From a virus (Duplodnaviria > Heunggongvirae > Uroviricota > Caudoviricetes), in IMG/VR virus record IMGVR_UViG_2579778538_000006, positions 1-29,553 of that record: 29,553 bases of DNA; one strand, given 5' to 3'. Of this stretch, positions 6,498-28,436 are shown piece by piece (position 1 is the stretch's first letter; each line of letters starts with the position of its first letter). A program made the translations under genes and the position numbers. A model generated the notes under the pieces. That model ran no database searches. It was not told the DNA's origin and worked only from the letters and a program-made list of their open reading frames with translations.

Positions 6498-6720
6498 AGA
6501 ACGCCGCCAGTCGTGAAACTTGTTTTCAGGGCTGGCGGGGTTGAACAACGAGCGAAGCGAGGCGTTAGTTGACAGACATATTTTTACTGCGTTGGTGCCG
6601 GTTTTTGACGGTTGAAAGGAGTTAGGTTGGAGAGCCAACAACTTACAAATATTCAAAAGTAAGCATCCTGTTGCTAACATGAGGTCGATTTTTTATGTGG
6701 ATGATGCAAAAAGGATAGCT

Positions 6721-7452
6721 ATGGATACTATAATCGCTTTTCTATCACTCGCTTTTTTCGTTGCTTTCTTCATCGGGTTAATCAAGCCATCACTGGTGCG
6801 AATGCCAAACCGCAAACGTGCAAGTGCGGTTTATCTCGGAGGAGGTTTTGTATTGAGCATAATTGGTTCAATACTCTATCCAACAGAAAAAAGCCAGCCA
6901 GTTGCTAAAACTGAAACATCAACCGTTGCAGAACACAAAGTCCAAAAAACATTCGAATATGGTGAAAAAACACTCAAGGAATATCGGAACGAGTCAAAGA
7001 AAACACGACACGATATTGTGAATAGTTACATTGATTTTAAGGAAGTTCCAGCCACCGCGTCAGATGCGTTTTATGCCTGCATGAGTGAGTATACATTTAC
7101 CAAAGATGATGAGTTGAAACTCGGTGATGTTCTTGGGTGGTGCTTTAATGATTATGAAAATGACCCGAATTCACTAAACAATAAAATCAATCTTGATACA
7201 TTTCAGAGTAATTTTAGTGGTTGGGATGGTTCTTATCGTCCATTGGAAAAACTAATTAAAGATAATATGAACGATGATTCATCTTATAAACATGTGTCAA
7301 CGGTATATCATTTGGTTTTGAATAAAGACCCGTACGCTATTGTGAAAACTACGTTTCGCGGTACTAATGCTTATGGTGGAGTGGTTAAGCAGACTATAGC
7401 TGCGCGCGTCGACATACGAACGGGAGAGGTTGTATCAATATTAGATAATTGA
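6721..7452 (+). CDS. Membrane-anchored hypothetical protein (two N-terminal hydrophobic segments), 243 aa; AT-rich cargo
   Basis: AAAGGA RBS upstream of ATG 6721; N-terminal hydrophobic helices (IIAFLSLAFFVAFFIGLI and AVYLGGGFVLSIIGSILY) followed by a hydrophilic domain; visibly AT-rich codon usage unlike the prophage backbone. Confidence 0.6.
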   Translation: MDTIIAFLSLAFFVAFFIGLIKPSLVRMPNRKRASAVYLGGGFVLSIIGSILYPTEKSQPVAKTETSTVAEHKVQKTFEYGEKTLKEYRNESKKTRHDIVNSYIDFKEVPATASDAFYACMSEYTFTKDDELKLGDVLGWCFNDYENDPNSLNNKINLDTFQSNFSGWDGSYRPLEKLIKDNMNDDSSYKHVSTVYHLVLNKDPYAIVKTTFRGTNAYGGVVKQTIAARVDIRTGEVVSILDN

Positions 7453-7517
7453 TTATAAGCAATGAGTGTTGAATGGTTTTCTGCACTCATATAAATATGA
7501 ATTTTTTAGGTGATGTA

Positions 7518-8453
7518 ATGGAATATCAACTGGATTTACAAGAGAATGCTATTGATAGTTTTAATGAAGCTTTAGCAAAGTATGAGTTAGGGCAGAGAGG
7601 AGAATTGCGGCAATATAAATTTGCTATCTTGCATTTGTCACATTTTCTTGAGCTGGTGTTGAAGTTATATATTGTTACAGTAGATGAAAATTTACTGTAT
7701 TCCGATTGCTATAAACAAATAGCTACAAGAGCAAAGCAAGAATCAATCAGTCTTTTAGACGCATATAATAAAATTATCGAGGATGGCGTTGATTTAGGAA
7801 GGTTCATTGAAGGGAAATCTAAGCCATATACGATAACCTTAGATCAGGCACTAAACTTTGCTAAGTGTGAGAAATGCGGCATAACTGGGGTTGATTTTGT
7901 AGATATTGATTTTTGTAATGATATAGCTTGGATAAAGAATTTAAGAAATGATATTGAGCATTATCAATTCAGACTTACTCCTAAAGACGCGCGCTTGTGT
8001 ATTGGACGCCTCGTCCGGGGGGTAGCTGAGTTTATTGATATCTTCGATCTTTTTAATCTTGAAGATGAAGTCGGTGCAGATAACTTACAGATATTTCAAA
8101 CTTTAGCTGATGAATACTCTCATCGGCTCTCTGAAGCCAAGAAAGAAGTTGAAGAAAGAGAGGCTGAAGCTTTTTATGGGGTTAGGCATAAATTTTATGA
8201 ATTGGTCGATTGGAAAGTTTATGAATGTCCTGAGTGTTCTAACGACACAATGATTCCCTCTGATGAGTCTTCTACGGGTTACAAATGCACTTTTTGTCAG
8301 AATGAAGATAGTGATGATATTGATGTTGCTTGCGATTGTTGTGGTGCGCAGGCTCCCAGCAGCGAAATGAGCATTTGGCCAATGGATGATGGTGATGTTG
8401 AGTATCGTTGTTACTACTGTTCAGGGCAGTATCAGGCAGATAAAGACTTTTAA
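7518..8453 (+). CDS. Hypothetical protein with HEPN-like R-N-x3-H motif and C-terminal Cys-rich zinc-ribbon-like tail, 311 aa; AT-rich cargo
   Basis: AGGTGA RBS upstream of ATG 7518; 'LRNDIEH' (Arg codon 7944-7946, His codon 7959-7961) matches the Rx4-6H HEPN signature; C-terminus has four CxxC pairs (CPEC, CTFC, CDCC, CYYC); AT-rich; follows the membrane ORF after 65 bp on the same strand. Confidence 0.6.
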   Translation: MEYQLDLQENAIDSFNEALAKYELGQRGELRQYKFAILHLSHFLELVLKLYIVTVDENLLYSDCYKQIATRAKQESISLLDAYNKIIEDGVDLGRFIEGKSKPYTITLDQALNFAKCEKCGITGVDFVDIDFCNDIAWIKNLRNDIEHYQFRLTPKDARLCIGRLVRGVAEFIDIFDLFNLEDEVGADNLQIFQTLADEYSHRLSEAKKEVEEREAEAFYGVRHKFYELVDWKVYECPECSNDTMIPSDESSTGYKCTFCQNEDSDDIDVACDCCGAQAPSSEMSIWPMDDGDVEYRCYYCSGQYQADKDF

Positions 8454-12741: not shown

Positions 12742-13815
12742 ATGCGCCAGGAAACCCGCTTTAAATTTAATGCCTACCTGTCCCGTGTTGCCGAACTGAA
12801 CGGCATCGACGCCGGTGATGTGTCGAAAAAATTCACCGTTGAACCGTCGGTCACCCAGACCCTGATGAACACCATGCAGGAGTCCTCTGACTTTCTGACC
12901 CGCATCAACATTGTGCCGGTCAGCGAAATGAAAGGGGAAAAAATTGGTATTGGTGTCACCGGCTCCATCGCCAGCACCACCGACACCGCCGGTGGCACCG
13001 AGCGTCAGCCGAAGGACTTCTCGAAGCTGGCGTCAAACAAGTACGAATGCGACCAGATTAACTTCGATTTTTATATCCGCTACAAAACGCTTGACCTGTG
13101 GGCGCGTTATCAGGATTTCCAGCTCCGTATCCGTAACGCCATTATCAAACGCCAGTCCCTTGATTTCATCATGGCCGGTTTTAACGGCGTGAAGCGTGCC
13201 GAAACCTCTGACCGCAGCAGCAATCCGATGTTGCAGGATGTGGCGGTCGGCTGGCTGCAGAAATACCGCAATGAAGCCCCGGCGCGCGTGATGAGCAAGG
13301 TCACTGACGAGGAAGGCCGCACCACCTCTGAGGTTATCCGCGTGGGTAAGGGCGGTGATTATGCCAGCCTTGATGCACTGGTGATGGATGCGACCAACAA
13401 CCTGATTGAGCCGTGGTATCAGGAAGACCCTGACCTTGTGGTGATTGTGGGACGTCAGCTACTGGCGGACAAGTATTTCCCCATCGTCAACAAGGAGCAG
13501 GACAACAGCGAAATGCTGGCCGCTGACGTCATCATCAGCCAGAAACGCATCGGTAATCTGCCGGCGGTACGCGTTCCGTACTTCCCGGCGGATGCGATGC
13601 TCATCACGAAGCTGGAAAACCTGTCCATCTACTACATGGATGACAGCCATCGCCGCGTGATTGAGGAAAACCCGAAACTCGACCGCGTGGAGAACTACGA
13701 GTCAATGAACATTGATTACGTGGTGGAAGACTACGCCGCTGGTTGTCTGGTGGAAAAAATTAAGGTCGGTGATTTCTCCACACCGGCTAAAGCGACCGCA
13801 GAGCCGGGAGCGTAA
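12742..13815 (+). CDS. N: Major capsid protein N, 357 aa
   Basis: 357 aa as in P2 N; follows scaffold gene. Confidence 0.9.
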   Translation: MRQETRFKFNAYLSRVAELNGIDAGDVSKKFTVEPSVTQTLMNTMQESSDFLTRINIVPVSEMKGEKIGIGVTGSIASTTDTAGGTERQPKDFSKLASNKYECDQINFDFYIRYKTLDLWARYQDFQLRIRNAIIKRQSLDFIMAGFNGVKRAETSDRSSNPMLQDVAVGWLQKYRNEAPARVMSKVTDEEGRTTSEVIRVGKGGDYASLDALVMDATNNLIEPWYQEDPDLVVIVGRQLLADKYFPIVNKEQDNSEMLAADVIISQKRIGNLPAVRVPYFPADAMLITKLENLSIYYMDDSHRRVIEENPKLDRVENYESMNIDYVVEDYAAGCLVEKIKVGDFSTPAKATAEPGA

Positions 13816-13818
13816 CCG

Positions 13819-14562
13819 ATGACGAGTCCCGCACAGCGCCACATGATGCGGGTCTCGGCAGCGATGACCGCGCAGCGGGAAGCCGCCCCGCTGCGACATG
13901 CAACTGTCTATGAGCAGATGCTGGTTAAGCTCGCCGCAGACCAGCGCACACTGAAAGCGATTTATTCAAAAGAGCTGAAGGCCGCGAAAAAACGCGAACT
14001 GCTTCCGTTCTGGTTGCCGTGGGTGAACGGCGTGCTGGAGCAGGGCAAAGGCGCACAGGATGACATTCTGATGACGGTCATGCTGTGGCGTCTGGATACC
14101 GGCGATATTGCCGGTGCGCTGGAGATTGCCCGTTATGCCCTGAAATACGGTCTGACCATGCCGGGTAAACACCGCCGTACCCCGCCGTACATGTTCACCG
14201 AGGAGGTGGCACTTGCGGCCATGCGCGCCCACGCTGCCGGTGAGTCTGTGGATACCCGCCTGCTGACGGACACCCTTGAACTGACCGCCACGGCTGACAT
14301 GCCTGATGAAGTGCGCGCAAAGCTGCACAAAATCACAGGTCTGTTTCTGCGTGACGCTGGTGATGCCGCAGGGGCGCTGGCGCACCTGCAACGCGCGACA
14401 CAGCTCGACTGTCAGGCAGGCGTCAAAAAAGAGATTGAACGACTGGAGCGGGAGCTGAAACCGAAGCCGGAGCCGCAGCCCAAAGCGGCCACCCGCGCCC
14501 CACGTAAGACCCGGAGCGTGACACCGGCAAAACGTGGACGCCCGAAAAAGAAAGCCAGTTAA
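13819..14562 (+). CDS. M: Terminase endonuclease (small) subunit M, 247 aa
   Basis: 247 aa as in P2 M; basic Lys/Arg/Pro-rich C-terminus; position after N. Confidence 0.85.
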   Translation: MTSPAQRHMMRVSAAMTAQREAAPLRHATVYEQMLVKLAADQRTLKAIYSKELKAAKKRELLPFWLPWVNGVLEQGKGAQDDILMTVMLWRLDTGDIAGALEIARYALKYGLTMPGKHRRTPPYMFTEEVALAAMRAHAAGESVDTRLLTDTLELTATADMPDEVRAKLHKITGLFLRDAGDAAGALAHLQRATQLDCQAGVKKEIERLERELKPKPEPQPKAATRAPRKTRSVTPAKRGRPKKKAS

Positions 14563-14660
14563 CAACGAATGCGCCCCGCGCCAGGGCGGCACGCCGGTCA
14601 GTGAGGGTGAATCACCTGACCCTGTACCGGCGTCCACCGCCCGACTTTTCAGAGGTAGTC

Positions 14661-15170
14661 ATGATGACGCTGATTATTCCGCGAAAGGAGGCTCCCGTGT
14701 CCGGTGAGGGTACGGTGGTCATCCCGCAACCGGCAGGCGACGAGCCGGTGATTAAAAACACGTTCTTTTTTCCCGATATCGACCCGAAGCGCGTCCGGGA
14801 ACGTATGCGCCTTGAGCAGACCGTCGCCCCCGCCCGTCTGCGTGAGGCCATCAAGTCAGGCATGGCGGAGACGAATGCGGAGCTGTACGAGTACCGCGAA
14901 CAGAAAATTGCCGCCGGTTTTACGCGTCTGGCGGACGTCCCGGCGGACGACATCGACGGTGAAAGCATCAAAGTTTTTTACTACGAGCGCGCCGTGTGTG
15001 CGATGGCGACCGCGTCGCTTTATGAGCGTTACCGCGGCGTGGATGCCAGTGCCAAGGGCGACAAGAAGGCCGACAGCATTGACAGCACCATTGATGAGCT
15101 GTGGCGGGATATGCGCTGGGCAGTGGCGCGCATCCAGGACAAGCCGCGCTGCATCGTGAGTCAAATCTGA
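14661..15170 (+). CDS. L: Head completion/stabilisation protein L, 169 aa
   Basis: Start at ATGATG 14661 (GAGG RBS) gives 169 aa, matching P2 L; stop overlaps X start (TGATG). Confidence 0.8.
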   Translation: MMTLIIPRKEAPVSGEGTVVIPQPAGDEPVIKNTFFFPDIDPKRVRERMRLEQTVAPARLREAIKSGMAETNAELYEYREQKIAAGFTRLADVPADDIDGESIKVFYYERAVCAMATASLYERYRGVDASAKGDKKADSIDSTIDELWRDMRWAVARIQDKPRCIVSQI

Positions 15171-15373
15171 TGAAGACCTTTGCGCTACAGGGCGACACGC
15201 TCGACGCCATTTGTGTCCGGTATTACGGGCGCACTGAGGGCGTGGTTGAGACCGTGCTCGCCGCAAATCCGGGACTGGCTGAACTGGGTGCGGTGCTGCC
15301 GCACGGCACCGCCGTCGAACTGCCCGACGTTCAGACCGCGCCCGTGGCTGAAACTGTCAATCTGTGGGAGTAA
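15170..15373 (+). CDS. X: Tail protein X, 67 aa
   Basis: 67 aa as in P2 X; start overlaps L stop at 15168-15172. Confidence 0.8.
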   Translation: MKTFALQGDTLDAICVRYYGRTEGVVETVLAANPGLAELGAVLPHGTAVELPDVQTAPVAETVNLWE

Positions 15374-19078: not shown

Positions 19079-19987
19079 ATGCCGATTATCGACCTGAACC
19101 AGCTACCCGCACCGGATGTGGTCGAGGAGCTGGACTTTGAAACCATTCTCGCCGAACGCAAGGCGACACTGATTTCCCTTTACCCGGAAGACCAGCAGGA
19201 GGCGGTCGCCCGTACCCTGACGCTGGAATCTGAGCCTCTCGTCAAACTGCTGGAGGAAAATGCTTATCGTGAGCTTATCTGGCGTCAGCGTGTGAATGAG
19301 GCCGCACGGGCGGTAATGCTGGCCTGTGCCGCCGGTAATGACCTTGATGTGATTGGTGCCAATTACAACACCACGCGCCTGATTATCACCCCGGCAGATG
19401 ATTCGACCCTCCCGCCGACACCGGCAGTGATGGAATCTGACACGGATTATCGTCTGCGTATTCAGCAGGCGTTTGAAGGTTTAAGCGTTGCCGGGTCGGT
19501 GGGTGCCTATCAGTATCATGGTCGCAGTGCCGACGGGCGCGTCGCAGATATCTCTGTCACCAGTCCGTCTCCGGCCTGCGTCACCATCTCCGTGCTGTCT
19601 CGCGAAAATAACGGTGTTGCATCCGAAGACCTGCTGGCGGCGGTGCGTAACGCCCTTAATGGCGAGGACGTCAGGCCGGTGGCCGACCGCGTGACCGTGC
19701 AGTCTGCCGCCATCGTTGAATACCAGATAAACGCCACGCTTTACCTTTACCCTGGTCCCGAAAGCGAACCCATCCGCGCTGCTGCCGTGAAAAAACTGGA
19801 AGCGTACATCACAGCACAGCACCGGCTGGGGCGCGACATCCGTCTGTCTGCCATTTATGCTGCTTTGCATGTGGAAGGCGTGCAGCGTGTCGAACTGACT
19901 GCTCCGCTGGCCGACATCGTGCTCAACAGTACGCAGGCGTCTTTCTGTACCGAATACCACGTCGTGACCGGAGGCTCGGATGAGTGA
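19079..19987 (+). CDS. J: Baseplate assembly protein J, 302 aa
   Basis: 302 aa as in P2 J. Confidence 0.85.
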   Translation: MPIIDLNQLPAPDVVEELDFETILAERKATLISLYPEDQQEAVARTLTLESEPLVKLLEENAYRELIWRQRVNEAARAVMLACAAGNDLDVIGANYNTTRLIITPADDSTLPPTPAVMESDTDYRLRIQQAFEGLSVAGSVGAYQYHGRSADGRVADISVTSPSPACVTISVLSRENNGVASEDLLAAVRNALNGEDVRPVADRVTVQSAAIVEYQINATLYLYPGPESEPIRAAAVKKLEAYITAQHRLGRDIRLSAIYAALHVEGVQRVELTAPLADIVLNSTQASFCTEYHVVTGGSDE

Positions 19988-20510
19988 TTCGCGACTGCTG
20001 CCGACCGGCTCATCACCGCTTGAGGTCGCCGCCGCAAAAGCCTGTGCGGAAATTGAAAAAACGCCGGTCAGTATTCGTGAGCTGTGGAACCCGGACACCT
20101 GCCCGGCAAATCTGCTGCCGTGGCTGGCGTGGGCGTTTTCGGTCGACAGGTGGGATGAAAAGTGGCCGGAAGCGACCAAGCGCGCCGTTATTCGCGATGC
20201 CTATTTCATCCACTGTCATAAAGGCACTATAGGCGCAATCCGGCGTGTGGTGGAGCCGCTCGGCTATCTCATTAACGTAAAGGAATGGTGGGAGACAAAC
20301 GACCCGCCCGGAACCTTTCGCCTTGATATCGGTGTGCTGGAAAGCGGCATCACGGAGGAGATGTATCTGGAAATGGAACGGCTGATTGCCGATGCCAAAC
20401 CCGCAAGTCGCCACCTTATCGGCCTGAACATTATCCAGGACATTCCCGGCTATCTGTATACAGGCGGTGTGGTCTGTGATGGTGATGTTATTACTGTTTA
20501 TCCCGGATAA
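19980..20510 (+). CDS. I: Baseplate/tail protein I, 176 aa
   Basis: 176 aa as in P2 I; overlaps J 3' end. Confidence 0.85.
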   Translation: MSDSRLLPTGSSPLEVAAAKACAEIEKTPVSIRELWNPDTCPANLLPWLAWAFSVDRWDEKWPEATKRAVIRDAYFIHCHKGTIGAIRRVVEPLGYLINVKEWWETNDPPGTFRLDIGVLESGITEEMYLEMERLIADAKPASRHLIGLNIIQDIPGYLYTGGVVCDGDVITVYPG

Positions 20511-20520
20511 GTGAGAAACA

Positions 20521-23256
20521 ATGAGCACGAAATTTAAAACCGTTATCACTACTGCCGGAGCCGCGAAGCTGGCAGCCGCCACTGTCCCCGGCGGGAAAAA
20601 AGTAAACCTGTCTGCAATGGCCGTGGGTGACGGTAATGGCAAATTGCCGGTGCCGGATGCCGGTCAGACGAAGCTGGTGCATGAGGTCTGGCGTCATGCC
20701 CTGAATAAAGTCAGCGTGGATAATAAGAATAAAAACTATATCGTGGCTGAACTGGTTGTTCCGCCAGAAGTGGGCGGCTTCTGGATGCGTGAGCTTGGTC
20801 TGTATGACGATGCCGGAACACTGATTGCGGTATCCAACATGGCAGAAAGCTATAAGCCAGAACTGGCTGAAGGCTCCGGACGTGCGCAGACCTGCCGCAT
20901 GGTTATTATTCTCAGCAACGTGGCGTCCGTTGAGCTGAGTATTGATGCCAGCACAGTGATGGCGACGCAGGATTACGTCGATGACAAAATCGCAGAGCAT
21001 GAGCAGTCCCGCCGCCATCCTGACGCCACGCTGACAGAAAAAGGTTTTACTCAGTTAAGCAGTGCAACAAACAGCACCAGTGAGTCATTGGCAGCAACGC
21101 CAAAAGCGGTCAAGGCAGCAAATGACAACGCAAATTCACGTCTGGCGAAAAATCAGAATGGTGCAGATATCCAGGATAAATCAGCTTTTCTGGACAATGT
21201 TGGCGTTACCAGCCTGACGTTTATGAAAAACAATGGCGAAATGCCGGTTGATGCTGATCTGAATACGTTTGGTCCTGTTAAGGCTTATTCAGGTATCTGG
21301 TCTAAAGCTACATCCACTAACGCGACGGCTGCTAAAAATTTCCCTGAAGACGGTGCAGTCGGTGTACTGGAGGTATTCAATGGCGGTAATTTTTCAGGAA
21401 TGCAGCGTTATACCACCAGAACAGGCAATGTTTATATGCGCAACCTTTCTGGCACATGGAATGGTTCAGACGGTCCGTGGAGTTACTGGCGTCAGGTTCA
21501 GTCTGCAACACGCCCCCTGAGCACAACCATTGACCTGAACACGCTCGGAGGCGCAGAGCATCTTGGTTTATGGCGAAACAGTAGTGGCTCAATCGCTTCA
21601 TTTGACCGCAACTATCCGGAAGAAGGAAGTTATGGTCAGGGACTCCTTGAAGTTCTTGAAGGTGGTGGTTACTCGCGAACGCAGCGTTACACGACCCGCC
21701 GTGGAAATGTTTATGTTCGCTGTCTTTCGGCCTCGTGGGATGCAGAGAACCCACAGTGGGAGCCGTGGTCAAGAGTGGGCTACCAGTCAGAAAGCCGTTA
21801 TTACGACGGTGATTTGAATGATGTAACCTCACCAGGTATTTACAGCGTTACAGGTAAAGCGACCAATGGTCCAATACTGGACGGAAACGGCGTGACAGTC
21901 CTCGGTATTCTGGAAGTGTTGAGGCGCTTTGATGGTGTTAACGTATGGCAGCGTTATACAACTGCCGGAACAGGTACAACCCTTAAAGGTCGCACGTTTG
22001 AGCGCGTTTTTACCGGCAGCTCATGGAGCGAATGGCGGGAAGTTTACACATCTTATTCACTTCCCCTGAATCTGGGTATCGGTGGCGCAGTAGCAAAACT
22101 CACCAGCCTGGACTGGCAGACATACGATTTTGTGCCGGGCAGTCTGATAACCGTTCGGCTGGATAACATGACCAATATTCCCGACGGTATGGACTGGGGC
22201 GTCATTGATGGCAACCTGATAAACATCTCAGTCGGTCCGAGTGATGATTCTGGTTCGGGACGCTCAATGCATGTATGGCGCAGCACTGTAAGTAAAGCCA
22301 ACTACCGCTTTTTTATGGTGCGTATTTCAGGAAATCCGGGAAGCCGCACGATTACAGCAAGACGAGTACCAATCATTGACGAAGCCCAGACATGGGGCGC
22401 GAAACAGACATTCAGTGCTGGCCTTTCTGGTGAACTGTCCGGCAATGCGGCGACAGCAACAAAGCTGAAAACAGCCCGTAAAATTAATAACGTTTCGTTT
22501 GATGGAACATCAGATATTAACCTGACGCCGAAAAATATTGGTGCATTTGCTTCAGGAAAAACAGGAGACACCGTTGCGAATGATAAAGCCGTTGGATGGA
22601 ACTGGAGTAGCGGAGCCTATAACGCAACTATTGGTGGGGCATCAACGTTAATTCTTCATTTTAATATCGGTGAAGGAAGTTGCCCCGCCGCCCAGTTCCG
22701 CGTTAATTATAAGAACGGCGGTATTTTTTATCGTTCTGCTCGTGACGGTTACGGATTCGAGGCTGACTGGTCTGAGTTTTATACCACAACGCGAAAACCT
22801 ACAGCGGGAGATGTCGGTGCACTGCCGTTATCTGGTGGTCAATTGAATGGTGCTCTGGGTATAGGAACATCCAGTGCTCTTGGCGGTAATTCGATTGTTT
22901 TGGGTGATAATGACACGGGCTTTAAACAAAATGGTGATGGTAATCTGGATGTTTATGCTAATAGCGTCCATGTTATGCGCTTTGTCTCGGGAAGTATTCA
23001 AAGTAATAAAACCATAAATATTACGGGGCGTGTTAATCCCTCGGATTACGGTAACTTTGATTCCCGCTATGTGAGAGATGTCAGACTTGGCACACGTGTT
23101 GTTCAGACCATGCAAAAAGGCGTGATGTATGAAAAATCAGGCCATGTAATCACGGGGCTTGGTATTGTCGGTGAAGTCGATGGTGATGATCCAGCAGTAT
23201 TCAGACCAATACAAAAATACATCAATGGCACATGGTATAACGTTGCGCAGGTGTAA
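20521..23256 (+). CDS. H: Tail fibre protein H (conserved N-terminal anchor, enlarged mosaic C-terminal receptor-binding region), 911 aa
   Basis: N-terminus (MSTKFKTVITTAGAAKLAAA...) resembles recalled P2 H; protein much longer than P2 H (recalled as 669 aa); C-terminal part contains three degenerate repeats of about 93 aa and has lower GC. Confidence 0.85.
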   Translation: MSTKFKTVITTAGAAKLAAATVPGGKKVNLSAMAVGDGNGKLPVPDAGQTKLVHEVWRHALNKVSVDNKNKNYIVAELVVPPEVGGFWMRELGLYDDAGTLIAVSNMAESYKPELAEGSGRAQTCRMVIILSNVASVELSIDASTVMATQDYVDDKIAEHEQSRRHPDATLTEKGFTQLSSATNSTSESLAATPKAVKAANDNANSRLAKNQNGADIQDKSAFLDNVGVTSLTFMKNNGEMPVDADLNTFGPVKAYSGIWSKATSTNATAAKNFPEDGAVGVLEVFNGGNFSGMQRYTTRTGNVYMRNLSGTWNGSDGPWSYWRQVQSATRPLSTTIDLNTLGGAEHLGLWRNSSGSIASFDRNYPEEGSYGQGLLEVLEGGGYSRTQRYTTRRGNVYVRCLSASWDAENPQWEPWSRVGYQSESRYYDGDLNDVTSPGIYSVTGKATNGPILDGNGVTVLGILEVLRRFDGVNVWQRYTTAGTGTTLKGRTFERVFTGSSWSEWREVYTSYSLPLNLGIGGAVAKLTSLDWQTYDFVPGSLITVRLDNMTNIPDGMDWGVIDGNLINISVGPSDDSGSGRSMHVWRSTVSKANYRFFMVRISGNPGSRTITARRVPIIDEAQTWGAKQTFSAGLSGELSGNAATATKLKTARKINNVSFDGTSDINLTPKNIGAFASGKTGDTVANDKAVGWNWSSGAYNATIGGASTLILHFNIGEGSCPAAQFRVNYKNGGIFYRSARDGYGFEADWSEFYTTTRKPTAGDVGALPLSGGQLNGALGIGTSSALGGNSIVLGDNDTGFKQNGDGNLDVYANSVHVMRFVSGSIQSNKTINITGRVNPSDYGNFDSRYVRDVRLGTRVVQTMQKGVMYEKSGHVITGLGIVGEVDGDDPAVFRPIQKYINGTWYNVAQV

Positions 23257-23259
23257 ATT

Positions 23260-23787
23260 ATGCAGCATTTAAAAAACATTAAGTCAGGTAATCCAAAAAC
23301 AAAAGAACAATATCAGCTAACAAAGAATTTTGATGTTATCTGGTTATGGTCCGAAGACGGAAAAAACTGGTATGAGGAAGTAAGTAATTTTCAGGAAGAC
23401 ACGATAAAGATTGTTTACGATGAAAATAATATTATTGTCGGCATCACCAGAGATGCTTCAACGCTCAACCCTGAAGGTTTCAGCGTTGTCGAGGTTCCTG
23501 ATATTACCGCCAACCGACGTGCTGATGACTCAGGGAAATGGATGTTTAAGGATGGTGCCGTGATTAAGCGGATTTATACGGCAGACGAACAGCAACAACA
23601 GGCAGAATCACAAAAGGCCGCGTTACTTTCCGAAGCGGAAAGCGTTATTCAGCCACTGGAGCGCGCTGTCAGGCTGAACATGGCAACAGATGAGGAGCGT
23701 AGCCGACTGGAAGCATGGGAACGCTACAGTGTTCTGGTCAGCCGTGTGGATCCTGCAAATCCTGAATGGCCGGAAATGCCGCAATAA
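23260..23787 (+). CDS. G: Tail fibre assembly chaperone (P2 G-like Tfa), 175 aa
   Basis: 175 aa as in P2 G; immediately downstream of H; Gln-rich linker and conserved C-terminal '[11 protein letters not shown]'-type tail typical of Tfa proteins. Confidence 0.8.
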
Positions 23788-24176: not shown

Positions 24177-24704
24177 ATGGACTGGAAAGATCTTGCATCA
24201 ACCGCTGTGTATACAGGTATGACTGATGAAAATGAAAACATATGGGAACGTGTTGATGGGGTTGACGTTGCCTTCATAGGTGCCTTTCTTACTGCGCACT
24301 TGAGCCTTGAAAAGTATATTACTGATTATCTTGGATTAAGATATCCTTCGTTAGCTTGGGGTGATGCAAAACTCACATTTTCACAAAAAATAGCTTTAAT
24401 ACAACATGAGCCTGCAAAACCCCCTTATGATGAAATATATTTAAGAATAAAAGACTTTAACAGCATAAGAAATAAAATCAGTCATCAATTGAATTATCAG
24501 ATTACGGATAAAGAAAAAAGTAAGTTTGTGGACTTCTACATGAAGATTACTAAAGCCAGTAAAACTAAACCAAATATTGATATTGATAACATGGCAGATT
24601 TGTTGGATTTTTTCGTGTCGATGACAAAATCCTATTTTGCTAGTGCTATTTCTTATTATCACTGTAATAAAAAGGTTGCAGGTAAAAGTAATAAAATTGA
24701 TTAA
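24177..24704 (+). CDS. Hypothetical protein with HEPN-like R-N-x3-H motif, 175 aa; AT-rich cargo in the G-FI (Z/fun) slot
   Basis: AT-rich ORF with A-rich RBS region; 'IRNKISH' (Arg codon 24468-24470, His codon 24483-24485) matches Rx4-6H; preceded by a roughly 390-bp AT-rich non-coding stretch (23788-24176). Confidence 0.6.
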   Translation: MDWKDLASTAVYTGMTDENENIWERVDGVDVAFIGAFLTAHLSLEKYITDYLGLRYPSLAWGDAKLTFSQKIALIQHEPAKPPYDEIYLRIKDFNSIRNKISHQLNYQITDKEKSKFVDFYMKITKASKTKPNIDIDNMADLLDFFVSMTKSYFASAISYYHCNKKVAGKSNKID

Positions 24705-27056: not shown

Positions 27057-27208
27057 CGTTCCCGAAAAATCTCTCGGTCGATGACCTGATGGCGGATGTG
27101 GCAGTGATATTTCACTGGCCGCCATCAGAACTGTATCCCATGAGCCTGACCGAACTCATCACATGGCGCGAAAAGGCGCTCCGGCGAAGCGGAAACACGA
27201 ATGAGTAA
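27035..27208 (+). CDS. E': E' extension reached by programmed -1 frameshift (E+E' fusion chaperone, about 142 aa total)
   Basis: Slippery heptamer T_TTT_TTG at 27029-27035 in E frame; the -1 frame is open from there to TAA at 27206-27208, overlapping the T start; fused length matches my recollection of P2 E+E'. Confidence 0.65.
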   Translation, partial: VAELGAVTFPKNLSVDDLMADVAVIFHWPPSELYPMSLTELITWREKALRRSGNTNE

Positions 27209-28436
27209 CAATGTAAAATTACAGGTATTGCTCAGGGCTGTTGACCAGGCATCCCGCCCGTTTAAATCCATCCGCACAGCGAGCAAGTCGCTGTCGGGGG
27301 ATATCCGGGAAACACAAAAATCACTGCGCGAGCTGAACGGTCACGCATCCCGTATTGAGGGATTCCGCAAGACCAGTGCACAGCTCGCCGTGACTGGTCA
27401 GGAACTGAAAAAAGCCAGACAGGAAGCCGCAGCTCTGGCAGTCCAGTTTAAAAATACTGAACGACCGACAAATGCACAGGCAAAGGCAATGGAAGCCGCG
27501 CGTAAAAATGCGTCTGAGTTACAGGCGAAATATAACAGCCTGAGATTGTCGGTACAGCGCCAGCGTCAGGAATTGAGTCAGACGGGTATTAATACCCGCA
27601 ATCTTGCACATGATGAGCAGGGACTGAAAAACCGTATCAGTGAAACCACCGCACAGCTTAACCGTCAGCGCGACGCGCTGGCGCGTGTCAGTGCGCAACA
27701 GGCAAAACTTAACGCAGTAAAACAGCGTTATCAGGCAGGCAAGGAACTGGCCGGAAATATGGCCTCAGTGGGCGCTGCCGGTGTGGGGATTGCTGCTGCG
27801 GGAACGATGGCCGGAGTTAAGCTGCTGATGCCCGGTTATGAGTTTGCGCAGAAAAACTCAGAATTGCAGGCCGTGCTAGGTGTGGCAAAAGACTCCGCCG
27901 AAATGGCCGCGCTCCGCAAGCAGGCGCGCCAGCTCGGCGATAATACCGCCGCCTCGGCAGATGATGCAGCAGCAGCTCAAATCATCGTGGCTAAATCGGG
28001 AGCGGATAAAAATGGCATCCTGGCACAAACACCGGCCATTTTGAATATGTCACTGGCAAACAAGAAAACGATGGAGGAAAACGCCACTTTACTTATTGGG
28101 ACAAAATCGGCATTCGGGCTTGCTGACGATAAGGCTTCCCATATTGCTGATGTTATTTCAATGACGATGAATAAATCGCAAGCCACATTCGAGGGACTAA
28201 GTGATTCACTTACCTATGTCGGGCCAGTGGCAAAAGATGCAGGTGTCAGCCTGGAAGAAACAGCAGCAATGTTAGGTGCATTACACGATGCAAATATCAG
28301 TGGGTCTATGGCTGGCACAGGAAGTCGAGCAGTACTGAGTCGTTTGCAGGCACCAACCGGGAAAGCGTATGACGCTATTAAAGAGCTTGGCGTAAAGACA
28401 ACTGACAGCAAAGGTAATACGTGCGTATTTTCATGA
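27201..28436 (+). pseudogene. T: Tail tape measure protein T, 3'-truncated (411 aa remaining) by IS insertion
   Basis: Alpha-helical, Ala/Gln-rich N-terminal half typical of tape-measure proteins; reading frame ends abruptly at 28436 where IS21-family terminal repeats begin; P2 T is recalled as about 815 aa. Confidence 0.8.

Follow-up and report, generated by a model that had tools for sequence, protein, structure and literature searches.

Three tandem modules of probable pyocin knob type in the mosaic tail fibre H of a P2-like phage

The tail fibre protein H, encoded in the 29,553-nucleotide viral stretch analyzed here (Caudoviricetes; IMG/VR record IMGVR_UViG_2579778538_000006, positions 1 to 29,553; termed the window below), contains three tandem repeats. 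We regard these repeats with high confidence as tandem pyocin knob domains of the family comprising Knob1 and Knob2 of the R-type pyocin fibres, and this grading applies to their identity taken jointly with the reading of their origin and function given below. The finding is correct but ordinary: a described knob domain is located inside a described mosaic fibre of the L-413C type, and this much is already known. Its main value is the correct annotation of the central 260 residues of H as three pyocin knob domains probably borrowed from the shaft of T2/T6 gp37.

The tandem modules of H

The gene H occupies positions 20521..23256 on the plus strand (an open reading frame of 911 aa plus stop), and its product matches the GpH annotated in Escherichia phage vB_EcoM-569R9 (ON470601) at 100% identity. 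According to the order of the open reading frames, H is preceded by I, a baseplate gene, and followed by the fibre assembly gene G (23260..23787, plus strand), the latter coding for a tail fibre assembly chaperone (PF02413 Caudo_TAP, E = 1e-36; GpG in ON470601), and the order I-H-G matches the annotations of ON470601, L-413C, and P2. H exceeds P2 H by 242 codons (911 - 669), in agreement with the surplus of about 240 codons noted in a preliminary description of the locus made from the sequence. The same description assigned to H an enlarged C-terminal region of lower GC content, which was found for aa 208-911 as a whole (GC 0.48 and GC3 0.42, versus 0.53 and 0.56 for aa 1-207) but is not a property of the knob block in particular, as the GC of the latter (0.50) is not the lowest in H; the minimum, ~0.43, was found in aa 630-673 and aa 769-911. 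The GC of the baseplate genes 5' of H is 0.58. PADLOC and Pfam scans of the low-GC flanking open reading frame at 24177-24704 gave no match.

Three modules, R1 (aa 246-337; 21256..21531), R2 (aa 338-430; 21532..21810), and R3 (aa 431-508; 21811..22044), all on the plus strand, are supported by a unit HMM and pairwise BLASTP, together with the knob fold in an AF2 model for R1 and a motif alignment for R3. R3, which extends to aa 520 (nt 22080) with the linker included, has diverged most among the modules and has a longer insertion after the QRYTT motif. The claim that H carries three repeats of about 93 aa was borne out: the three strings quoted for them are present, the pairwise similarities are significant by BLASTP and shuffling, and the interval given for them, 21230-22030, is only about 15-25 nt off the module boundaries. 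The HMM built from the three units detected exactly three copies in H, each with an E-value below 1e-30, and no copy in P2 H or T4 gp37, while T4 gp34 yielded only marginal scores. The motifs of the modules align in register across R1, R2, and R3, the conserved residues being DLN, P, G-LEV, QRYTT, Y-R, and W-x2-W.

Two readings of the repeats can be weighed at this point. The similarity between R2 and R3 is weak by itself (32% identity, E = 4.9e-4, shuffle z = 4.8) and might be taken for chance or compositional resemblance. However, R1 and R2 share 43% identity (E = 4e-25, z = 27.6), R1 and R3 share 34% (E = 1.4e-6, z = 7.4), and the HMM matches, the register of the motifs, and the similarity of the three predicted folds stand against this reading as well; we regard it as refuted and give it practically no credence. 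Alternatively, the modules could be the product of a recent tandem duplication in situ, that is, an array that expands and contracts and thereby tunes the fibre length. The modules are indeed arranged strictly head to tail with a period of 92-93 aa, and in a library-wide profile search, which recovered 1461 cluster representatives, the best 150 of the 1461 contained 1-8 matched stretches per protein. Nevertheless, the nucleotide identities between the modules over aligned codons are 52%, 48%, and 35%, and Tandem Repeats Finder detected no DNA-level repeat over the region, the repeat being visible at the protein level only. Furthermore, all of the 70 complete relatives (70/70) possess exactly three knobs, and each module of H is closer to the module at the same position of T6 gp37 (AXN58284, 994 aa) than to its own neighbours (32-43%): R1 is 64% identical to T6 gp37 aa 125-216, R2 is 64.5% identical to aa 217-309, and R3 is 49% identical to aa 310-401. 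Because of this positional similarity, the duplication that made the modules is, as judged from these identities, ancient. A recent duplication is thus extremely unlikely, being effectively refuted by the divergence of the modules, their positional similarity to T6 gp37, and the constant copy number.

Affinity to pyocin knobs

A knob profile (termed A2) was built from 16 units and searched against PDB. It matched the R1/R2 pyocin fibres (6cl5, E = 2.4e-6; 6cl6, E = 8.6e-5) and 6ct8 (E = 6e-4), so that sequence homology to pyocin knobs is detectable, as well as other phage fibres known to bear knobs, such as Pa193 gp47 (9b45, E = 1e-3). The matched positions of the 6cl5 and 6cl6 chains, ~143-211, should correspond to Knob2 after conversion to residue numbers. 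In the AF2 monomer model of aa 226-520 (pLDDT 80.4), three similar, consecutive beta-rich units were predicted, about five strands being seen in the best-resolved one, and the model is thus in line with the beta structure proposed earlier for the repeats. A Foldseek search with this model retrieved 6cl5 as the top match (E = 8.4e-7, probability 1.0); next came receptor-binding proteins from the phages phi812, P68, phi11, and 80alpha, several of which were classed as knob-like by Buth et al. 2018 (PMC6116203). The TM-scores of the whole model against the pyocin fibres were low (0.24-0.44) because the monomer model places its domains in arbitrary orientations relative to one another. No Pfam or NCBIfam model matched the repeats, whether the complete protein, the single units, or the 16 units were scanned; therefore, the family assignment rests on the profile search against PDB and the fold searches.

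The knob family has been defined by a length of ~80-90 residues and an antiparallel beta-sheet of 5-6 strands plus connecting loops (PMC6116203), and the modules of H agree with it in size and beta-sheet architecture; they also resemble the solved pyocin knobs in structure and are homologous to them in sequence. Knob1 and Knob2 of the R1/R2 pyocin fibres (PDB 6CL5, 6CL6, 6CU2) are ~83 aa long, compared with ~80-93 aa for the modules, and the knobs stand in tandem within the fibre in both cases. On the other hand, the R1/R2 pyocin fibre bears two copies and H bears three, and the two sets share only some 14-19% sequence identity. In the pyocin fibres, an iron-binding shaft and a lectin-like foot come after the knobs, whereas in H the knobs lead into another conserved segment and a tip of the Mu S / P2 H type. 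At NCBI, the name 'pyocin knob domain-containing protein' is given to proteins that share 56-87% identity with the query region, and the pyocin knob was described as a mobile pseudo-domain across phage families with RBPseg (PMC12143355).

A mosaic of P2 H ends and a T6 gp37-like center

The N-terminal region of H (aa 1-207; 20521..21141, plus strand) comprises a P2 H-type N-terminal domain (PF12571 on aa 1-151, E = 3e-57) and a Phage_fiber_2 repeat (PF03406 on aa 170-211, E = 2e-20), and is 84% identical to aa 1-207 of the P2 tail fibre H (NP_046775, 669 aa), which agrees with the P2 H-like N-terminus described earlier. We infer that this domain serves the attachment to the baseplate. With its tail-collar fibre domain, Phage_fiber_2 repeat, and location between I and G, a neighbourhood shared with P2, H belongs to the P2-like (Peduovirus) H proteins. 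Apart from aa 1-207, P2 H can be aligned only with aa 770-911 of H, P2 H aa 472-669 being 51.5% identical to the C-terminal part (~140 aa); the alignment breaks off between the two ends. P2 H possesses no knob module, and the ~264 aa in its center show no relationship to the central 562 aa of H. Judged from these alignments, the extra length of H is a replacement of the center of P2 H and not an insertion.

In contrast, H of Yersinia phage L-413C (NP_839867, 913 aa), located likewise between I and G, is colinear with H over the full length (82% identity, 913 aligned positions). The two proteins are 100% identical in the N-terminus and the junction motif (see below) and 99% identical in the distal aa 674-911. 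L-413C H likewise has three knob units, at corresponding positions, but these and the post-knob segment are different, deeply diverged alleles with saturated dS (R1 50%, R2 71%, R3 44%, and post-knob segment 70% identical). As cited in PMC7460101, Garcia et al. 2008 described L-413C H as a four-part mosaic, of which the N-terminal 207 aa and the C-terminal 137 aa are P2-like. In H as well, P2-like ends surround a non-P2 center of ~560 aa, so that H is a mosaic of the L-413C type.

The donor fibre family sought in the preliminary description is probably that of T6 gp37, of which aa 105-562 are colinear with H aa 226-688 (53.5% identity, 465-aa alignment) and include the three knobs, in unchanged order. 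Many T-even gp37 proteins are 57-62% identical to the knob block of H, while neither T4 gp37 nor T4 gp34 was matched by H in BLASTP; at the sequence level, the shaft is related to gp37 of the T2/T6 type and not to the gp37 of T4 itself. H as an orthologue of gp37 was rejected, since only the segment of aa 226-688 is shared and T4 gp37 gave no match. The N-termini differ, being the P2 baseplate attachment in H and the gp36-joining end in T6 gp37, and so do the distal ends; the gene after T6 gp37 is annotated as gp38. T2/T6-type gp37 bears gp38 as its tip adhesin. Altogether, the P2-like ends, the T6 gp37-like center, and the colinearity with L-413C H uphold the tail-fibre mosaicism claimed in the preliminary description. 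That description recognized neither the module as a known pyocin knob nor the architecture as that of L-413C H with a T2/T6-type gp37 shaft.

The segment following the knobs (aa 509-629; 22045..22407, plus strand) lies within the alignment with T6 gp37. The AF2 monomer of aa 505-681 (window 22033-22563) had a pLDDT of only 33.7, which is probably due to a shallow alignment of near-identical sequences and to an intertwined trimer. The conserved junction motif 'GNAATATKLKTARKIN..FDG..TP' (aa 630-673; 22408..22539, plus strand) is 66% identical to T6 gp37 aa 63-106, and the 'GNAATATKLKTARKIN' motif thus precedes the knobs in T6 gp37 but follows them in H. The distal part (aa 674-911; 22540..23253, plus strand) consists of a Mu S'-like/gp37_C domain and then a tip of the P2 H/Mu S type, with matches to Mu S/S' (8ju3, aa 672-768, E = 6e-49), PF12604 (aa 679-754), and Mu S (5yvq, aa 836-910, E = 2e-15).

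Knob alleles among relatives and the role of the knobs

Conservation is 98% for aa 1-207 among 53 relatives and 93% for the post-knob segment among relatives; the knobs form a local peak of variability (entropy 0.5-0.7) between these two highly conserved flanks. Entropy is highest in the C-terminal aa 674-911 (0.9-1.35; peak 1.75 in 20-residue windows), with a jump in variability at about aa 661, and in many relatives the match to the query ends at aa 673, the tips being exchanged beyond the junction motif. Five to six deep alleles were found for each knob module among otherwise near-identical phages, and some of these are equally close to T-even gp37 and to other Peduovirus alleles. Allele combinations vary; for example, 16 sequences carry (L010, L010, H) and four carry (H, H, L009). 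R3 is exchanged independently of R1 and R2. The dN/dS of the knobs is about 0.1-0.15, indicating purifying selection, and dS is bimodal; therefore, the diversity points to the exchange of old module alleles, and positive selection by point mutation was rejected as its source on the ground of the low dN/dS. The tip and the knob cassette assort independently: a tip 99% identical to that of L-413C is combined with knobs only 44-71% identical, while in other relatives the knobs are 94-97% identical and the tip is unrelated.

We propose that each module of ~80-90 residues probably forms a small antiparallel beta-sheet with surface loops and that, by analogy to the solved pyocin fibres, three such sheets of a homotrimer would pack round the fibre axis into a globular node, of which the conserved residues listed above presumably form the cores and the variable loops the surface. 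The knob triplet and the ~120 residues after it represent one block common to gp37 of the T2/T6 type (the distal subunit of the long tail fibre), and its presence in place of the center of P2 H makes up the L-413C-type mosaic. The knobs may act as rigid, self-registering trimerisation or spacer nodes that lengthen the shaft, possibly with weak secondary contacts to surface glycans. Primary receptor specificity is probably a property of the last 240 residues, which are exchangeable and fold with the assistance of G, and knob diversity would be generated by the exchange of whole old module alleles, R3 moving apart from R1/R2. Sequence patterns suggest that aa 674-911 are probably the primary receptor-binding region; the reported receptor of the L-413C tip is the LPS outer core, and in the P2-like phage P88 the host-range determinant was experimentally mapped to aa 716-746 in the C-terminal region of H (PMC5285337).

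The preliminary description regarded the repeats as a receptor-binding module and associated them with host-range switching. A reading in which the knobs bind the receptor, either as the binding module itself or as a second site of equal rank, and in which the exchange of their alleles switches the host range, would be consistent with the local peak of variability, the deep alleles in otherwise near-identical phages, and the alleles that resemble T-even gp37 no less than other alleles of Peduovirus. For the knob family, saccharide binding or a part in target specificity has been proposed. Moreover, Buth et al. propose that Knob2 of pyocins contributes to the killing spectrum or specificity, and a knob-like beta-prism of K1F binds sialic acid (PMC6116203). 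However, the modules are located mid-fibre, about 400 residues from the C-terminus, and are under purifying selection; wholesale swapping affects the hypervariable aa ~661-911, after which the chaperone gene G follows; the tip shared with L-413C is decoupled from the knobs; P2 H is functional as a fibre without any knob; and the determinant in P88 lies distally. We thus consider this reading improbable, and neither of the two earlier claims was sustained. Most likely, as far as sequence comparisons tell, the knobs are trimeric nodes of the shaft and at most auxiliary in binding. An auxiliary glycan-binding role is possible, and the variable knob block with its several deep alleles would also fit host-surface recognition. 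A bolder version, in which the knob positions are independently exchangeable weak glycan binders, with alleles pooled across Peduoviridae and T-even Straboviridae and maintained by balancing selection and module-wise recombination, seems doubtful, albeit somewhat less so than the co-equal receptor site; the module-wise shuffling and the allele pool spanning both families are observed among the relatives. If it were true, a fixed tip could be combined with varied 'pre-docking' specificities toward variants of the O-antigen or the LPS outer core, which would constitute a combinatorial second layer of host range; such a layer would follow likewise if knob alleles modulated adsorption.

For the engineering of P2- or L-413C-based fibres and retargeted pyocins, the boundaries of the knob modules and the 'GNAATATKLKTARKIN...TP' motif (aa 630-673) offer natural joints; in nature, the knob cassette already assorts independently of the tip (aa 674-911).

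Tandem modules of H and their relation to the pyocin knob

The ORF for the tail fibre H (window 20521..23256, + strand) encodes 911 aa, including three tandem modules, R1, R2 and R3, which open with DLN motifs at aa 246, 338 and 431, respectively, and of which the third finishes with ...WSEWREV at aa 508. They occupy nucleotides 21256-22044 of the window (up to 22080 with the trailing linker included), so that the span in the preliminary description, 21230-22030, was essentially right, and all of the three strings quoted there were found in the protein. The similarity among the modules is far above chance: R1 and R2 shared 43% identity (BLASTP E = 4e-25; Smith-Waterman z = 27.6, 500 shuffles for each pair), R1 and R3 34% (E = 1.4e-6; z = 7.4), and R2 and R3 32% (E = 4.9e-4; z = 4.8). 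An HMM built from R1-R3 detected exactly three copies in H and zero copies in either P2 H or T4 gp37. The observation of three tandem repeats is confirmed. The modules are not visible at the nucleotide level, as Tandem Repeats Finder reported no repeat in the DNA, and aligned codons were only 52%, 48% and 35% identical between modules.

No model in the Pfam and NCBIfam libraries matched the repeats, and the close homologues are named 'pyocin knob domain-containing protein' by NCBI. The knob assignment was examined in two independent ways, by a sequence profile and by a predicted structure. The profile (alignment A2; 16 units from H, T6 gp37, Yersinia phage L-413C H and three database homologues) matched the fibres of the R1 pyocin (6cl5, E = 2.4e-6) and the R2 pyocin (6cl6, E = 8.6e-5), at chain positions that should correspond to Knob2 by our own conversion of chain to residue numbering, as well as the Pa193 gp47 tail fibre (9b45). 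The AlphaFold2 monomer model of H aa 226-520 (mean pLDDT 80.4) comprised three similar beta-rich units, and the first Foldseek match in PDB was again the R1 pyocin fibre 6cl5 (E = 8.4e-7, probability 1.0), followed by the receptor-binding proteins of Staphylococcus phages phi812, P68, phi11 and 80alpha. These matches largely overlap the knob-like set of Buth et al. 2018 (PMC6116203). Low whole-model TM-scores are expected, because the orientation among the three domains is arbitrary in a monomer model. Modelling across the post-knob segment (aa 509-629; modelled as aa 505-681) yielded no usable fold (pLDDT 33.7). As judged from the profile and the predicted fold, we assign R1-R3 to the pyocin-knob domains.

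When a profile was searched against 1.84 billion cluster representatives, 1461 knob-family proteins were retrieved at E ≤ 1e-3, with 1 to 8 matched stretches per protein in the best 150 of them. In RBPseg (PMC12143355), the pyocin knob is already described as a mobile pseudo-domain that tail-fibre classes and phage families have in common. Two homologues, P0037 and P0040 (~450 aa), have in common an unrelated N-terminus (MAWYTTGTIAVSGTTVTGTGTNF...), followed by two knob modules each and then a different C-terminus, so that this knob family also occurs in a quite different fibre scaffold.

Mosaic build of H

As had been noted, H is longer than P2 H (911 versus 669 aa). P2 H aligns only at both ends of H, implying that the centre was replaced rather than added to. 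H aa 1-207 are P2 H-like (84% identity; PF12571, E = 3e-57; PF03406, E = 2e-20), and aa 770-911 share 51.5% identity with the C-terminus of P2 H. Between them, aa 226-688 are colinear with T6 gp37 aa 105-562 (53.5% identity over 465 positions). BLAST of H against T4 gp37 and gp34 found no detectable similarity. The distal part matches Mu S/S' at aa 672-768 (8ju3, E = 6e-49; also Pfam gp37_C) and the Mu S C-terminus at aa 836-910 (5yvq, E = 2e-15). The reading of H as a mosaic tail fibre is right. The lower GC content ascribed to the C-terminal region holds in outline, as aa 208-911 (0.48) are below aa 1-207 (0.53; baseplate genes upstream, 0.58), but the minimum lies in the junction motif and tip (about 0.43) and not in the knobs (0.50).

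H is colinear throughout with L-413C H (913 aa; 82% identity). PMC7460101 credits Garcia et al. 2008 with the description of the latter as a mosaic, in which a foreign centre lies between P2-like ends of 207 aa (N-terminal) and 137 aa (C-terminal). The segment encoding H and the assembly chaperone G is 100% identical to that of Escherichia phage vB_EcoM-569R9 (ON470601, Peduovirus), whose annotation names the two products tail fibre protein GpH and assembly protein GpG, and the knob-coding stretch was present in 306 of the 5426 complete E. coli genomes. Earlier work has already described the domain family, its movement between phage families, mosaics of the L-413C type and the kinship with T-even gp37; our own contribution is confined to one small point, that old knob alleles, while under purifying selection, are shuffled one module at a time.

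Age, exchange and proposed role of the knobs and tip

H R1, R2 and R3 resemble the same-position modules of T6 gp37 (64%, 64.5% and 49% identity) more than their neighbours in H (32-43%), indicating that the triplication predates the Peduovirus/T-even split of the copies. Among 80 IMG/VR loci, all of the 70 complete H genes (840-928 aa) contained exactly three units. Clustering at 90% identity gave 5-6 Peduovirus alleles for each module, which combine in several ways, with mostly R3 exchanged independently of R1 and R2. The R1/R2 modules of T6 gp37 are 60-70% identical to most Peduovirus alleles, as close as the L-413C-type alleles and, for R1, closer; for R3, the T6 gp37 module is the most distant (31-44%). 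By the Nei-Gojobori method, the knobs are under purifying selection (dN/dS about 0.1-0.15), and their dS follows a bimodal distribution, with values either near zero or saturated at 1-2, compared with 0.1-0.3 in the flanks.

Across 53 distinct relatives (52 IMG/VR sequences and L-413C H), mean entropy was 0.05 in the N-terminus, 0.47-0.68 in the knobs, 0.23 in the post-knob segment and 0.9-1.35 in the C-terminal regions (aa 674-911, the tip); 20-residue windows from aa 661 to 900 ranged from 0.6 to 1.75. Many relatives match H only up to aa 673, which places the exchange of the tip at the conserved junction motif ('GNAATATKLKTARKIN..FDG..TP'; H aa 630-673, window 22408-22539). The motif follows the knob block in H and precedes the knobs in T6 gp37 (aa 63-106). 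Its coincidence with the tip-exchange point is in keeping with its being a recombination joint common to fibre families. By per-region identity to H, the tip and the knob cassette assort independently: in L-413C H the tip is 99% identical and the knobs 44-71%, and another relative (L037) combines 94-97% identical knobs with an unrelated tip (12-16%).

By analogy with the pyocin structures, each module in the trimer would supply one sheet of a globular node, with the intra- and inter-chain cores built from the conserved residues (DLN, P, G-LEV, QRYTT, Y-R and W-x2-W) and the variable loops lying exposed. The repeats had been proposed to be a receptor-binding module, which is not supported as their primary role given the purifying selection on the knobs and the more variable, exchanged tip. 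We prefer to regard the knobs as putative rigid trimerisation and spacer nodes within the shaft, with primary specificity probably residing in aa 674-911, assembled with the help of G. In the P2-like phage P88, experiments located the host-range determinant in the C-terminal portion of H (PMC5285337), and for the near-identical tip of L-413C the receptor reported in PMC7460101 is the terminal GlcNAc of the LPS outer core. The knobs may also make an auxiliary glycan contact, as was proposed for pyocin Knob2, and the raised allelic diversity of the knob block agrees with this.

Other ORFs in the window and in ON470601

Between G and the sheath gene FI, at the position that the non-essential fun(Z) occupies in P2, a 175-aa ORF of very low GC (0.33; window 24177-24704, +) had no Pfam or PADLOC match. 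We saw by eye an 'RNKISH' (Rx4H, HEPN-like) motif in it, and an accessory or defence role is possible. Two ORFs (6679-7452 and 7473-8453, both +) lie directly downstream of the gpA-like replication gene, the site of the non-essential tin and old in P2. Neither had a Pfam match, the second matched the PADLOC candidate defence family PDC-S64 (E = 2e-17; aa 19-102 only), and ON470601 has a DUF4209 protein in their place.

The tape-measure ORF (27201-28436, +) is just 411 aa, compared to about 815 codons for P2 gene T (19850-22297), and its PhageMin_Tail match stops at profile position 169 of 201; a frameshift, truncation or sequencing error may be involved. The annotation of ON470601 splits capsid gene N, terminase subunit gene M and tail gene D each into two neighbouring CDSs (13499-14592, 14596-15337 and 30960-32085), which may be frameshifts or assembly errors of that record. 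The window ORFs at 12742-13815 (357 aa) and 13819-14562 (247 aa), putatively N and M by expected position, are each continuous.
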